Source: Candidatus Micrarchaeota archaeon (GTDB lineage Archaea; B1Sed10-29). From it: 22,091 nt of DNA. Below are positions 223 to 12,154 of this stretch, one piece after another. The notes under the pieces were generated by a model. It was not told where the DNA came from and did no database searches. It was given only the letters and a program-made list of their open reading frames with translations. Location: NCBI GenBank assembly GCA_964579265.1, contig CAZOFO010000007.1:1-22091 (forward strand). The letters are read 5' to 3'. Each line of letters opens with the position of its first letter. Position 1 is the stretch's first letter. A program made the position numbers and the translations under genes.

Positions 223-1515
223 TTAGTTTATATTAATAGGAATCTTCTGAAACTCTTCTCCAAAAGCAAGGTTGAGCACTTCTTTATTATCTGCAGCATA
301 TTCTAAGAACCTAGGAATAAGATCTTTAGCTACCTTACAACTATAAGAAGAAGGGGAATTTTTCCTATCCCCGAAAAACGTTCTCATCGGACAATTACCT
401 CTGCAAATATGTACTAAATCACATTGAGGACATCCTTCATAGCTTGAAGGATGGTAACTGAATAAATTCTTTCTCTGGTATTCCCGAATAGCCTCAAAGT
501 TCAAATTACTATCTTCTTCTAATTTATTTTCAATAATGAATTTATCACCTAATCCTTCTTCAATAACCTCCACACATGAACTTAGAAGACCATAAGGAGA
601 GACCACTAACCTATTCCTCATGGAACATATATAATCCGCACTAGGAACATTCAAATAAATTGTATTTATATAAGCTTTCTTATCCTTTTCAACCATATTC
701 TTAAACAACCTCATCATTTCATCGGAGAAGGAAGAAGGTTTAGGAGGACAAATATTCTGAGAACGAGATGAACCGGATACATGAACTGTTTCCAGACTAA
801 CTGATATTACTCCGTAATCATCTATTAATTTCAAAACATCCTCTGTAATATTCTCAACATTACTCTTGGTAATAGTCATCTGTACTCTAGTAAGTCCCTC
901 AGAGTAACTTTCCTCCAAAGCTTCCAGAGTCTCTTGTAGTCTAAGTTCAGAATCAAATTCCTTCGCAGGTCTGTTTATTGACTGCGAGCTTCCATCATAC
1001 GAGACCCTAAGATTCACATTTTTTGACTTCAACCACTCTAAGTGATCTTTCACCTTGGTGCCGTTAGTAACTATCCTAATATAATGATCAAGACCCATAT
1101 CCTCCACATAATTCACTACACTTTTTATCAGATCAAAATTTAGTAGAGGTTCTCCCCCACCCGTGAAAAACAAGTTTATTTTACTAGTTTCAGGATATCT
1201 TTCCATTAATTGATCTATTAGATTAAAGCAAACTTCTTTTGAAGTATCCTTTTTCTCTTCACCCCCATCAGCATAACAGTACTTACACTTAAGATTACAT
1301 CTAGTAGTAGGCACCACAGTAAGCTCCAAAGTATCTTCATCCTTTCTGAAAGCTTTTCCGCTATAATCAATTTTCTTAAATCCTTCTTCTATACTTTTTT
1401 TTATACAATTCTTATTCTTTTCATAATCATCTTTAGGGAAAAGAGCAAGAGCTCTGTCACCGGTAACAGCAACATCCTCATTTAATTTTATTACTTTAGG
1501 TTCGTAAATACCCAT
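223..1515 (-). CDS. Radical SAM/SPASM-domain protein (anSME/peptide-maturase-like), 430 aa
   Basis: CNLKCKYC (CxxxCxxC), GGGEPLLN, VTNGT, VSYDG. SPASM cysteines in YIC..SPYGLLSSC..CPQCDLVHICRGNC..YSC. About 60-aa N-terminal extension. SD GGAG at 1524-1521. Confidence 0.93.
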   Translation of the reverse strand: MGIYEPKVIKLNEDVAVTGDRALALFPKDDYEKNKNCIKKSIEEGFKKIDYSGKAFRKDEDTLELTVVPTTRCNLKCKYCYADGGEEKKDTSKEVCFNLIDQLMERYPETSKINLFFTGGGEPLLNFDLIKSVVNYVEDMGLDHYIRIVTNGTKVKDHLEWLKSKNVNLRVSYDGSSQSINRPAKEFDSELRLQETLEALEESYSEGLTRVQMTITKSNVENITEDVLKLIDDYGVISVSLETVHVSGSSRSQNICPPKPSSFSDEMMRLFKNMVEKDKKAYINTIYLNVPSADYICSMRNRLVVSPYGLLSSCVEVIEEGLGDKFIIENKLEEDSNLNFEAIREYQRKNLFSYHPSSYEGCPQCDLVHICRGNCPMRTFFGDRKNSPSSYSCKVAKDLIPRFLEYAADNKEVLNLAFGEEFQKIPININ

Positions 1516-1820: not shown

Positions 1821-2858
1821 ATGAAAATGTCAGAGGACCTTATAGAGATAGGAAAGGAAATCGAACTAGAACTAATACAATGGGAACTTACAAAAGAATG
1901 TAATCTTCATTGTCCTTTCTGCTATGCGGATTCAGGACCAGACAAAATAAGCGATAACGAGTATAATTCCTCCGAAAGGAAAGAGATCTTCAAGAAATTA
2001 AAACAAATAGGATTAGAAGAACTTCAATTTCTCGGAGGAGAACCACTCTTAAAAAAAGATACGATTCTATACGCTTTAAGAGAAAACGAAGGAAACATCT
2101 CTCATTTCACAATAACTACAAACGGAACTCTCATTACTGAAGAACTAGTAGAAGAACTAAAACCATACAAAGACAAATTATCAATCCAAATAGCTCTAGA
2201 TGGAGCTAAAGAAGAAACTCATGATTCTTTAAGAGGCAAAGGAACTTATAAAAAAGTCATCAGCGGAATCAAGATACTTAACGAAAATAATATAAACTGG
2301 GGAACAACCCTTCTAGCCACCAACAAAAACTTTGATGAATTAGAAGAAATAGTGGAAAAAGTAGAGGAAAAAGGAGGAGAATACATTCAAATTCTAAAAT
2401 TAAGAAGAGGTGGAAGAGAAGAAAACTTCTACGCAAAAGCAGGATTATCAGCAGAAGAAAAGGATAAAACAAGAAATAAGATTAAAAAGCTAGTTGATAA
2501 ATACCCTGATCTCGTATTCACCGAATCTTTTGTACTCCCTTATCACAAAAACAGATTAGAAAAAGCGAAAGAAGATGAAGAATCCTTTTTAGGATGTGGA
2601 ACAGGATTAATGAGAGTTTCTATATTTCCAAATAAAATAATGAGTCCCTGCGTAGGTATAAGAGAAAATTCTCTATTAGCTGAAAAAATAGAGGATCTGG
2701 ACATAAAAGGAACTTATCAGAAGATTAAAGATAAATACCTAAAAAAGGTAAGAGAATACAAAAAACAAAGATGCCAAGAATGTGAATACAGAGAAGAATG
2801 CTTCCCAAGATCTTGCCAAATAGAAGCTGATATGGAGAAATGCCCTCAGGAAAGATAG
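1821..2858 (+). CDS. Radical SAM/SPASM-domain protein, 345 aa
   Basis: CNLHCPFC, GGEPLL, TTNGT, IALDG. SPASM GCGTG..IFPNKIMSPC..CQECEYREECFPRSC. SD-like GAGGG before the start (ATG at 1821 or 1827). Confidence 0.93.
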   Translation: MKMSEDLIEIGKEIELELIQWELTKECNLHCPFCYADSGPDKISDNEYNSSERKEIFKKLKQIGLEELQFLGGEPLLKKDTILYALRENEGNISHFTITTNGTLITEELVEELKPYKDKLSIQIALDGAKEETHDSLRGKGTYKKVISGIKILNENNINWGTTLLATNKNFDELEEIVEKVEEKGGEYIQILKLRRGGREENFYAKAGLSAEEKDKTRNKIKKLVDKYPDLVFTESFVLPYHKNRLEKAKEDEESFLGCGTGLMRVSIFPNKIMSPCVGIRENSLLAEKIEDLDIKGTYQKIKDKYLKKVREYKKQRCQECEYREECFPRSCQIEADMEKCPQER

Positions 2859-8876: not shown

Positions 8877-9043
8877 ATTTCATCTCCTTATACAAAAGAG
8901 GAAATCAAACCTCTTATTATTTATCCTTAAAAACAAAAACAAGAATATTAATTACTTAAAACACCAAAAAATACACGGGAACAAACACACAAAAAAACTC
9001 AAAACAATTGAAAAATCAACTTAAAAATAGGAAACACGATAAA

Positions 9044-10243
9044 ATGGATCAAAAAGAAAAAAGAAAACTAGAAAAAAAGATAAAAGAACTAGAACAAATG
9101 AAAGGAAAAGGAACAGAACTAATAAGCCTATACATACCACACGATCAGAACGTAAACGAAGAAGTAACAAGATTAAAAACAGAATACAGCGAAGCAGCAA
9201 ATATAAAGTCAAAATCAACAAGAAAACACGTTCAGTCAGCAATAAAAACAATACTACAGTCACTAAAAGGAGTAAACGAACTTCCAGAAAACGGAGTAGC
9301 AATATTCGCAGGACACGTGGATGGAGATATGAAAAAAGAAATAATAACACCACCAGAACCAGTTCAAGTTAATCTATACAACTGCGACAACACCTTCAAA
9401 CTGGAACCATTGAAAAAACTCGTTGAATCAAAAGAAAAATACGGACTAGTAACAATAGACAGCAAGAACGCAACCATAGCAAAACTGAAAGGAAAGCATC
9501 TGGAAATACTGCAGAGCTTCGGTTCACAAGTACCTTCAAAACACACAAAAGGAGGATGGAGCCAGAAAAGATTCGAAAGAATAATCAACCAGGCAAAACA
9601 CGAACACTACAAAAAAGCAGCAGACATAATAAACAAAGAATTCAAAGACGAAGAGATAAGAGGAGTGATAATAGGAGGACCAGGACAAGCAAAAGACAAA
9701 ATAGACTCAGATCAATACCTAAATAAAAAAATAACGAAAAAAATACTTGGAAAACCAAGCACAGGATACGCGGACGAATCAGGCATAAAAGAACTGATGC
9801 AAAAATCAGAAGAACTCATAAAAGATCTAGAAGTACAGAAAGAAAGAGAAGCAGTAGATAAATTCATGAAAAAAATCACAGGAGACGAACTAGCAACATA
9901 CGGATTAAAACAAGTGGTAAAAGCACTCAAACAAGGAAAAGTAAAAACATTAATGATTTCAGAAGACATCAACTGGAAAAAAACAAAGATAAAATGCCCA
10001 GAATGCGGAGAAGAAGAAGAAAAACTAATAAAAAACATGGAAGAATTCCAAAAACAGGGAAAAATCTGTTCAAAATGCAAAGAAGAAAGAGAAATAAAAG
10101 AAAAAAGAGACGTAACTGAGAAACTTGAACAACTAGCGGAAGAAACCGGTTCAGATATAAAATACATATCAACAGATACAGACAAAGGCAAACAATTCCA
10201 CGATGCCTTCGGAGGAATAGGCGCAATACTCAGATACAAGTAA
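9044..10243 (+). CDS. prf1: Peptide chain release factor aRF1 (eRF1 family) with atypical GGWSQ loop (start revised from TTG 9008 to ATG 9044)
   Basis: GTELISLYI, NIKS, YNCDNTF, IIGGPG, Zn-ribbon CPEC..CSKC, C-terminal FGGIGAILRY. Confidence 0.9.
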   Translation: MDQKEKRKLEKKIKELEQMKGKGTELISLYIPHDQNVNEEVTRLKTEYSEAANIKSKSTRKHVQSAIKTILQSLKGVNELPENGVAIFAGHVDGDMKKEIITPPEPVQVNLYNCDNTFKLEPLKKLVESKEKYGLVTIDSKNATIAKLKGKHLEILQSFGSQVPSKHTKGGWSQKRFERIINQAKHEHYKKAADIINKEFKDEEIRGVIIGGPGQAKDKIDSDQYLNKKITKKILGKPSTGYADESGIKELMQKSEELIKDLEVQKEREAVDKFMKKITGDELATYGLKQVVKALKQGKVKTLMISEDINWKKTKIKCPECGEEEEKLIKNMEEFQKQGKICSKCKEEREIKEKRDVTEKLEQLAEETGSDIKYISTDTDKGKQFHDAFGGIGAILRYK

Positions 10244-10262: not shown

Positions 10263-11117
10263 ATGACTGAAAAAATCATCTCCAAAACAAAGAAAAGATA
10301 CAAGAACACAAAACAAAAGATCTTAAATAGATACGAAAAAACAGACCTAAAGTACAAAAAAATCATCTACCTAGGTATAGGAGTACTCCTCACATCATAC
10401 ATAGCGATTTTCCTAATCGATCTACTCAATATATTCAATTCAAGACAAATTCTAAACGTATTAGAAGTACCATTGCTCTGGAACTTCTTATTCACAGAAA
10501 ACGGACCAATAGAAATACTTCAATGGATATTCCTAGGAGGATTCACAATAACAAGTTTCTTTCTCGCCAATAAACTGAAAAAAAAGGGAAAAACTAAGGA
10601 AAAAATGTTCTGGTCAATTTTCGCAGTAGCAGGAATCCTAATGCTCATAGAAGATATATTTAGTTTAAGAATCCTCATCTCCGTAGCAATCCTAGAAGCT
10701 GATAAACACGGAGTAAAAATGATACAGATACTTATATATAGTTTAATATCAATACTGCCTTTAATATCACTATTAATATATAGAAAAAAGGTATTCCAAC
10801 ATAGAACAACTAAAATACTACTAATTTCAGGAGTGATAATCTACGGAAGCGCTGCATTCATCTCAGGACCATCAGACCTAATTGGAACAACTGATAGAAT
10901 GGGAAATACCCTTTACGACACCACCACATCAATAGGAGGAGAAGAACTAGTTGAAATATACGACGAAATAGATCGGAGAGTGGAAAAAGGAGAACTAGCA
11001 AGATTAAATGTAAGATATAGACTGGTTGATTACATAGTAGAAGAGAGCTTGGAACTATTAGGAGCAATGTTACTGCTAGCTTCCTCCATATCCTACAAAA
11101 ACCACATCAACCGCTGA
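10263..11117 (+). CDS. Hypothetical multi-pass membrane protein (paralog A)
   Basis: About 6 hydrophobic segments; ENGPIEILQW, LMLIED, EESLELLG; clearly similar to the next gene. Confidence 0.85.
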   Translation: MTEKIISKTKKRYKNTKQKILNRYEKTDLKYKKIIYLGIGVLLTSYIAIFLIDLLNIFNSRQILNVLEVPLLWNFLFTENGPIEILQWIFLGGFTITSFFLANKLKKKGKTKEKMFWSIFAVAGILMLIEDIFSLRILISVAILEADKHGVKMIQILIYSLISILPLISLLIYRKKVFQHRTTKILLISGVIIYGSAAFISGPSDLIGTTDRMGNTLYDTTTSIGGEELVEIYDEIDRRVEKGELARLNVRYRLVDYIVEESLELLGAMLLLASSISYKNHINR

Positions 11118-11275: not shown

Positions 11276-12154
11276 ATGACTCGAAAAATCCCGGAAAAAA
11301 TTAGAAAGCTATATGAAAAAACAAGCGAGACAGTAAAAAAGAAGTATAAAGAAACCTCCGTAGACTACAAACACGCCCTTTACATAGGGATTGGAGCACT
11401 TCTAATATCCTATCTAGCAGTTTTCTTAGTAGATATACTGAACGTCTTCGGCGCAAGATCAATAATGGAACACCGAGCCGTTCCACTACTATGGAACTAC
11501 CTCTTTGGAGAAAGAGGACCAATAGAAATGATTCAATGGATCTTATTAGGAGCATTTACACTTACAAGCACCTTATTAACAATAAATCTGAGAAAGAAAG
11601 ATAGAAAAAAAGAAAGCATATTCTGGCTACTTTTCGCCATAACAGGAGTACTAATGATAATCGAAGATATAGGGAACATAAGACATTTCCTATTCAGAGA
11701 ACTTATAAGCGTTCAATGGGAAACAGTAAATATCCTAGAAACAATATACTTCGGCCTAATAGCACTACTACCTATAATAGCAGTAGTAAAATACGGAAAA
11801 CAAGTATTCAACAAGAAAAACACCACAATATTGCTAATCCTTGGATTCATATTTTACGGCTCAGCAGCCGCCCTATCAGGACCATTAGATCTTGCTGAAA
11901 CAAAATACGAAGTAGGTGAATCACTATACGAGATAACAATAGTGATGGGAGGAGAAGAACTAAGAGAAGTATATGAAGAATCTGAAAGACGACTCGAAGA
12001 AAGATCACCAGGAGGAGAATACGTGGGAATTAGATACAGACTACTAGATTTCCTTTTAGAGGAAACCCTTGAACTATTAGGAGTTACAATGCTCCTGGCA
12101 TCAGCCATATCATACAAACAACACTTAAAAAACTCTAAGAAAACAGAAAGATAG
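11276..12154 (+). CDS. Hypothetical multi-pass membrane protein (paralog B)
   Basis: ERGPIEMIQW, LMIIED, EETLELLG; colinear with paralog A. Confidence 0.85.
   Translation: MTRKIPEKIRKLYEKTSETVKKKYKETSVDYKHALYIGIGALLISYLAVFLVDILNVFGARSIMEHRAVPLLWNYLFGERGPIEMIQWILLGAFTLTSTLLTINLRKKDRKKESIFWLLFAITGVLMIIEDIGNIRHFLFRELISVQWETVNILETIYFGLIALLPIIAVVKYGKQVFNKKNTTILLILGFIFYGSAAALSGPLDLAETKYEVGESLYEITIVMGGEELREVYEESERRLEERSPGGEYVGIRYRLLDFLLEETLELLGVTMLLASAISYKQHLKNSKKTER

Follow-up and report, generated by a model that had tools for sequence, protein, structure and literature searches.

What share the side chain of the GGQ glutamine, the methyl group it carries and the backbone amide have in peptide release is an old question, for which mostly crippling laboratory mutants have been available. 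GGQ is regarded as invariant in class-1 release factors at large and is called universally conserved in e/aRF1 (PMC2613156), and a general occurrence of its methylation in archaea has been proposed (PMC6144793). The stretch of DNA analysed here (the window; 22,091 nucleotides of contig CAZOFO010000007.1 from a Candidatus Micrarchaeota archaeon) encodes an archaeal class-1 release factor, aRF1, from which the GGQ tripeptide is absent. Residues 170-172 read GGW, and the resulting GGWSQ sits within HTKGGWSQKRFER of the 399-aa ORF. Is this protein the terminator of its cell, and which residue would then do the work of the missing Gln?

Apart from the loop, the protein has the composition of a release factor (Table 1). 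The Pfam models eRF1_1, eRF1_2 and eRF1_3 all match above cut-off, so the N, M and C domains are present, eRF1_3 with 84 bits over residues 265-399, and the TIGR03676 score of 449 bits compares with a cut-off of 234.7. The fold predicted by AlphaFold (mean pLDDT 86) has its best match in aRF1/eRF1 and forms a helix from residue 172 to 199. Against solved aRF1/eRF1 structures the GGQ loop aligns ungapped, with Trp over Gln. For the GILRY motif near the C-terminus, a role in GTPase binding is described (PMC2613156). With the intact ORF, domains and stop-decoding motifs, the preliminary description of an otherwise complete aRF1 with GGWSQ for GGQ holds. TAA, TAG and TGA, which it noted as stops in the window, all end long ORFs of the genome as well: the 359 long ORFs of the genome (G000; 761 kb, 91% complete) end in TAA (223), TGA (71) or TAG (54), apart from 11 that ran off contig ends. 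Judged by its sequence, the protein is a variant aRF1 orthologue and not a canonical aRF1 member, because it has GGW instead of GGQ at 170-172. Due to the differing depositor labels of its members (Iainarchaeum, Micrarchaeota or just archaeon), we refer to the window family as a small DPANN-type lineage.

Table 1 Sequence features of the aRF1 gene in the window and of the protein it encodes.
Feature	Position	Strand	Detail
aRF1 gene	9044..10243	+	399 aa, uninterrupted ORF, ATG at 9044; further in-frame TTG upstream at 9008
NIKS stop-decoding motif	9200..9211	+	residues 53-56; sequence, column conservation
YxCxxxF motif, YNCDNTF	9377..9397	+	residues 112-118; sequence, column conservation
GGWSQ loop tip, where GGQSx is expected	9551..9565	+	GGA GGA TGG AGC CAG = G170 G171 W172 S173 Q174
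TGG, Trp172, at the site of the normally methylated Gln	9557..9559	+	ungapped alignment, equal loop length, reads
CAG, Gln174, +2 residue co-varying with loss of the GGQ Gln	9563..9565	+	
R176-x-x-R179, helix arginines in normal register	9569..9580	+	rows with Arg: 34/34 and 198/198 at 176, 34/34 and 186/198 at 179
Zinc-ribbon minidomain, domain C	9995..10078	+	C318, C321, C342, C345
GAILRY motif, C-terminal, domain C	10220..10237	+	sequence

Two tandem paralogous membrane proteins without Pfam match are encoded between aRF1 and truD (10263-11117 and 11276-12154, plus strand). Other loci have one copy (L051) or none, with truD directly following aRF1 (L083, L087, L101). Elsewhere in the window, two divergently oriented radical SAM genes (223-1515, minus strand; 1821-2858, plus strand) adjoin a GTPase gene and a diphthamide-synthesis gene. 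Contig C41 of the genome, 1.7 kb long and with 63-68% G+C as against 36% for the genome, is probably a contaminant.

A sequencing or assembly error at GGWSQ, considered improbable from the beginning, is ruled out by the family, the database relatives and the reads. The aRF1 was recovered from four of the five other genomes of the family (G002-G005; no match in G001, 72% complete), and these proteins, 63-81% identical to that of the window, all read GGWSQ, as do all seven closest database proteins. In four soda-lake read runs no alternative letter appeared at 9557-9559 among the rows listed, which leave out nine minor ones. An identical contig bridges the Trp172 codon in run X2, from which this DNA may itself derive, and a contig of a related strain does so in run X7, which belongs to a separate study.

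In the window's genome, tblastn, a six-frame motif scan and a genome search found no second aRF1, with or without GGQ, and the only other match was pelota. For a wider view, we scanned one genome per species with the pattern P-x-K-H-x-x-G-G-[not a C-starting codon]-S-x-x-R-[FY]-[DE]-R, which is blind by design to loops without KH, to intein-split loops and to His, Pro, Leu or Arg at the site. It yielded 62 loci, namely 48 GGWSQ, 7 GGFSQ, 1 GGYSQ and 6 GGMSS, and the TIGR03676 search covered 50 of these 62 genomes. The GG[WF]SQ variant was the only gene above cut-off in 43 of 43 genomes; four of them repeat G002-G005, and another is a bacterial bin into which a contig of the window family was misplaced. 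In another phylum, that of G035, all 13 non-Gln genomes checked have a single aRF1, so that the non-Gln variant stands alone in all 56 genomes of these two sets. A bin labelled Bacteroidetes (L080, G087) contains a contig of the window's archaeal family.

The six GGMSS genes, from six Methanomassiliicoccales genomes, and the GGYSQ gene, from one Promethearchaeota genome, are second copies beside another aRF1, which was fetched in five of the seven cases and reads GGQ in each. The GGMSS paralogs (L057, L077, L089, L090, L092, L106) lack NIKS; they may be tied to amber/pyrrolysine decoding. Another aRF1-like paralog of 370 aa, which is divergent, reads GGQSQGRF and differs in its N-terminal region, lies beside a normal aRF1 (L122; G057:C1:576300-578400).

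Such paralogs, together with the completeness of only 91% of the window's genome, give some room to the early suggestion of a rescue-type paralog, or to an inactive one, whose true GGQ counterpart is absent from the assembly. We regard this as extremely improbable, since no second aRF1 appeared in any of the 56 other non-Gln genomes, the window protein keeps NIKS and YxCxxxF, which sets it apart from the NIKS-less GGMSS paralogs, and a separate Pelota gene is present in the same genome. From its status as the only aRF1 found, the window protein is almost certainly a working terminator.

The loss of the Gln is not confined to this family. Among the best 150 representatives of 50%-identity clusters, in which intein-bearing proteins are over-represented, 27 have another residue (W, F, M, A, E or S) and 123 are of the GGQ type. 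On a FastTree phylogeny of 241 aRF1s (381 before redundancy filtering) with the loop columns removed, 20 changes between Gln and non-Gln are required, 17 for aromatic residues, and GG[W/F/M/Y]S has about 17-20 origins there. The window family groups on it with GGQ-type aRF1s of the class to which it belongs (support 84). A homologue search confined to one region gave no more than six proteins of the window family. Further origins include a Sulfolobales family that contains Zestosphaera: of the 117 loops read, 13 are non-Gln, and the other 104 are all GGQSQ. In haloalkaliphilic Thermoplasmata, GGFSQ is nested among GGQSA with identical flanks, and the sister of a non-Gln group in Nitrososphaerota reads GGQSQ. 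The phylum of G035, which has small genomes and is probably Aenigmatarchaeota, was matched in 137 of 151 genomes, with 61 Gln, 74 non-Gln (W 45, M 25, Y 2, F 1, A 1) and 2 unclassified loops, all read by eye. In the phylum of G045 no non-Gln loop was found, the 32 matched genomes of 34 being all GGQ. One record labelled Aenigmatarchaeota (L052, G062) carries a Thermoplasmata-type aRF1.

The preliminary description had given weight to the Gln two residues further on, and rightly so. Among the 150 representatives, Gln at this +2 position occurs in 24 of the 27 non-Gln proteins as against 29 of the 123 GGQ proteins; the latter number also shows that SQ after GGx does not by itself mark a VLRF1, contrary to the preliminary description. 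The +2 Gln is found in all 56 aromatic cases of the locus scan, and among intein-free loops of the phylum of G035 it occurs in 4 of 57 of the Gln type but in 54 of 60 of the non-Gln type. In phylogenetically independent pairs on the tree, the link between non-Gln and +2 Gln gives a median p of about 0.008. Six genomes that are 88-96% complete have a sole aRF1 without any loop Gln, reading GGWSAN (four), GGWSAS and GGMSAR.

Does Trp172 occupy the position of the Gln, or is the loop displaced? The stretch from residue 161 to residue 179 is 19 aa long in all 108 non-Gln aRF1s, in 281 of 282 aRF1s with Gln and in all 45 archaeal VLRF1 proteins (aVLRF1). G170, G171, S173 and R176 are invariant in Gln and non-Gln types, and the spacing of K166, S173, R176 and R179 is fixed. 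Inteins sit behind residue x in GGQ and GG[WFM] alleles alike. Due to the equal loop length, the invariant flanks and the same intein site, we place Trp172 at the Gln position.

These inteins, for which aRF1 is a hot spot, deserve mention in their own right. A Cys...His-Asn intein of 133-577 aa lies exactly at GGx|S of aRF1 in 49 representatives, and in 6 of the 25 other genomes of the window's class (L031-L036; G012, G029, G027, G018, G007, G019). A second site, Yx|C of YxCxxxF, is used in five representatives, and two proteins bear both, so that intein-bearing aRF1s make up 52 of the 150 representatives (P0121-P0269). One source annotation names an aRF1-intein fusion, and the main text of an intein survey (PMC4760082) leaves release factors unmentioned. 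We considered the loss of Gln as an escape from an intein homing at GGQ|S and rejected it: W, F and M are likewise followed by the intein (14 of the 49 intein-bearing representatives), and in the phylum of G035 inteins occur in 14 of 74 non-Gln as against 4 of 61 Gln genomes.

Mtq2/PrmC of H. volcanii methylates the Gln of the aRF1 GGQ motif, and the enzyme is said to be present in all archaea (PMC6144793). In the window's class, TIGR00537 matched above cut-off in none of the six family genomes (G000-G005; 62-91% complete) but in 21 of the 25 other genomes. The window aRF1 offers no Gln for N5-methylation, and we found no PrmC/Mtq2 in the six genomes of its family. The model gave no match above cut-off in 38 further GG[WF]SQ genomes, and it matched in all six genomes that have a GGMSS paralog and a second aRF1 (read as GGQ in four of the six). 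In the Thermoplasmata family, PrmC is found in 10 of 10 GGQSA genomes (the tenth split across two contig ends) as against 0 of 7 GGFSQ genomes. The Sulfolobales have it in 98 of 104 GGQ genomes (72 at E <= 1e-18 plus 26 full-length matches with a custom profile, 16 of which were checked by tree and fell outside the paralog clade) and in none of the 13 GGWSQ genomes. In the phylum of G035 the numbers are 57 of 61 for Gln (55 above cut-off) and 0 of 74 for non-Gln, and within its mixed family f59 PrmC occurs in 3 of 3 Gln and 0 of 11 Trp genomes. The non-Gln loop goes with the absence of PrmC/Mtq2, and does so in each of four unrelated groups, the counts being samples of incomplete genomes in which kin are not independent.

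Several matches were inspected and discarded. Three of the 74 non-Gln genomes in the phylum of G035 had PrmC matches that turned out to be other methyltransferases, and weak PrmC-like matches in seven non-Gln genomes (G080, G097, G102, G162, G363, G392, G456) were not counted because they belong to other methyltransferase groups or miss the YxPxxD/NPPY pattern. PrmC is also missing from some GGQ genomes (4 of 25, 6 of 104 and 4 of 61 in the above groups). In the all-GGQ phylum of G045 it was matched in 27 of 34 genomes, which reflects background loss or incompleteness, and in a GGQSQ sister clade within the Sulfolobales family it is present in one genome and not in two. Trm112 was found in none of five genomes of either loop type and thus offers no contrast, and ribosomal L44e was found in five of five genomes.

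Could the loop have been patched into an aRF1 from an aVLRF1- or baeRF-type gene by gene conversion, or could the protein be an aRF1/VLRF1 intermediate, as was initially considered? Loops of Methanomicrobia-type aVLRF1, KHSKGGWSQKRFER, agree with that of the window protein in 13 of 14 residues, having been selected by that very pattern, and the loop of the window family resembles aVLRF1 and the GGQ aRF1s of the class to a like degree (identity 0.68 vs 0.63). With 113 columns of the M domain, a grouping of the family with aVLRF1 was not rejected by an AU test (p = 0.62), which is weak here, as the aVLRF1 branches are very long. Outside the loop, in four segments, the window protein is only 12-19% identical to aVLRF1 but 42-50% identical to 24 GGQ aRF1s of its class. 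The separate M-domain phylogeny that had been suggested groups the family with its own class in the best free tree (support 95) and not with aVLRF1, and trees without the loop likewise leave it within that class. Among the 31 genomes of the class no second match to the acVLRF1 model was found. In other lineages one or two substitutions with unchanged flanks are enough (GGQSQ to GGWSQ; GGQSA to GGFSQ), and the flanks vary between the non-Gln lineages. A chimeric or intermediate origin consequently appears quite improbable to us, although a conversion tract no longer than the loop is conceivable. Another aRF1-like family, with proteins of about 380 aa that read KHKKGG[WFM]SQ.R[FY]QR, occurs in Thermoplasmatota and is probably baeRF family 10 (L113 in G088:C26; also second matches in G231, G247, G224, G245, G263 and G293).

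How might such a factor release the peptide? We propose an ordinary, vertically inherited release factor in which Trp replaces the GGQ Gln in an unshifted loop. Its N domain would read all three stop codons, and both loop glycines would still enter the peptidyl-transferase centre, where the backbone NH of residue 172 could provide the polar catalytic contact. The W, F, M or Y side chain may pack on A2451/C2452/U2506 in place of N5-methyl-Gln. Gln174 would be a frequent enabling or compensating residue, perhaps one that restores a hydrogen bond, rather than a relocated catalytic residue, the proposed path being GGQSA to GGQSQ to GGxSQ. The methyltransferase, deprived of its substrate, would then be lost. 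For the GGQ factor, a packing role of the Gln side chain has been described, which methylation improves by way of contacts to U2506, A2451 and 2452, and the main-chain amide lies in the catalytic pocket, where amide and side-chain carbonyl surround a water molecule (PMC5799190). Taken as a whole, this mechanism of packing by a bulky hydrophobic residue in place of methyl-Gln, with the +2 Gln as accessory, is in our view somewhat more probable than not. Since the six sole aRF1s described above have no loop Gln, neither Gln appears strictly needed.

This explanation is weakened because the +2 Gln is near-obligate, which a shifted catalytic Gln predicts equally, and because the Gln carbonyl that orients water (PMC5799190) cannot be supplied by Trp. 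An easy tolerance of Gln loss is further put in doubt by the yeast eRF1 Q182E strain, which could not be propagated (PMC12440015). A working terminator with a shifted catalytic Gln, as the preliminary description had suggested, could also be obtained by a change of register of two residues: on the ribosome the start of the helix would unwind and bring Gln174 to the site of the GGQ Gln, with Trp172 stacked to the side, in the way proposed for the GGxSQ motif of aVLRF1/acVLRF1. The strong co-variation of non-Gln with +2 Gln speaks for this, as do the treatment of the Q of GGxSQ as active-site residue in aVLRF1/acVLRF1 (PMC6514570) and the requirement of Q295 of GGSQ for release by yeast Vms1 (10.1101/301341). 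But the loop contains no indel and its spacing from K166 to R179 is constant, the AlphaFold model keeps 172-199 in one helix (a weak argument, as the alignment held GGQ proteins and the model no ribosome), and the six sole aRF1s have Gln neither at 0 nor at +2. Furthermore, GGQSQ is normal across the Sulfolobales, so that the +2 Gln acts there beside the GGQ Gln and not instead of it. A shifted Gln is thus a serious but rather unlikely solution, weakened by the constant loop length and the Gln-less loops. The loss of PrmC is neutral between packing by Trp172 and catalysis by Gln174, because the GGQ site disappears either way.

A change on the ribosomal side could make the altered loop tolerable, with a factor that works only with its own ribosome. 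The 23S rRNA of G005 (L315:1750-2300, minus strand), the only one found in the window family, departs from the archaeal consensus in its peptidyl-transferase loop by A2448G, C2452U, A2453G and G2505U. A2448G, C2452U and A2453G are also present in the GGQ relative G010, which has A2503C as a change of its own (L314:4640-5200, plus strand), with n = 1 per class; the positions 2448, 2452, 2453, 2503 and 2505 we take to be in E. coli numbering. G005 and G010, which both depart from the consensus, are members of one order. No 23S rRNA is assembled in the window's genome, and five other non-Gln genomes yielded none with a short pattern. An altered centre as the cause is therefore very improbable in our view; it can add to the packing of residue 172 but does not exclude it.

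The preliminary description had allowed that GGWSQ might prove to be a widespread, already described aRF1 variant. It is widespread, in many lineages, but in a literature search that covered few subscription journals we found no description: GGxSQ appeared for VLRF1 families only, and neither a Gln-less primary aRF1 nor a co-loss of PrmC was reported. The text of the PMC6514570 supplement, whose figure alignments are unsearchable, contains no Gln-less aRF1 motif. By its sequence, the GGWSQ of the window is thus a widespread variant rather than a unique one, and breaks a textbook invariant. We hold it quite possible that the methylated GGQ Gln is dispensable for primary termination and was given up independently at least 17 times within the archaea, in one phylum by about half of the sampled genomes. 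Trp, Phe, Met or Tyr would have replaced methyl-Gln before the methyltransferase was deleted, some lineages would terminate without any loop Gln, and the GGxSQ of VLRF1 would be the same solution, with x and not Q as the heir of the GGQ Gln. Natural single-copy GGW/F/M/Y factors and their near-identical GGQ sisters form a ready test series for the role of the Gln, as in Sulfolobales and Thermoplasmata, where the sisters are one or two substitutions away and the methyltransferase was lost alongside. Gln-less aRF1s also raise the question of which residue in the GGxSQ of VLRF1 corresponds to the catalytic Gln.

Compared with known systems, the window protein resembles classical aRF1 (TIGR03676; PDB 4AF1, 3AGK) and eRF1 in its three domains, NIKS, YxCxxxF, zinc ribbon and GILRY-type end, and also in loop length, the two glycines, Ser at +1, Arg at +4 and +7, single copy and tree position within its class. 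It differs in the Gln that is described as universally conserved (PMC2613156, PMC5799190, PMC6144793) and is Trp here, and in PrmC/Mtq2, not found in six of six family genomes. With acVLRF-1, baeRF family 10 and Vms1-ANKZF1 it shares a Gln after a small residue (GGxSQ/GGSQ). The Pfam models acVLRF1 and baeRF10 match its M domain, but they also match GGQ aRF1s, and the acVLRF1 model NF041024 gives 34 bits, below its cut-off of 125; unlike acVLRF-1, the protein retains the stop-codon domain, and the architectures are not alike. The definition of aVLRF-1 comprises a GGxSQ motif, a coiled coil at the N-terminus and the lack of a C-terminal Pelota domain (PMC6514570). With aVLRF-1 the window protein shares the GG[WF]SQxRFER loop, of equal length, and the GGxSQ motif, but it carries the C-terminal eRF1_3 domain, and its N domain begins at about residue 5-11, with no long N-terminal coiled-coil extension. 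The 45 aVLRF1 proteins that we fetched for comparison, picked partly by a loop search pattern, have 307-373 aa, end 66-93 residues past the motif and contain no intact NIKS/YxCxxxF. Such aVLRF-1 proteins look like accessory factors, while the protein of the window is the only aRF1 found in its genome.
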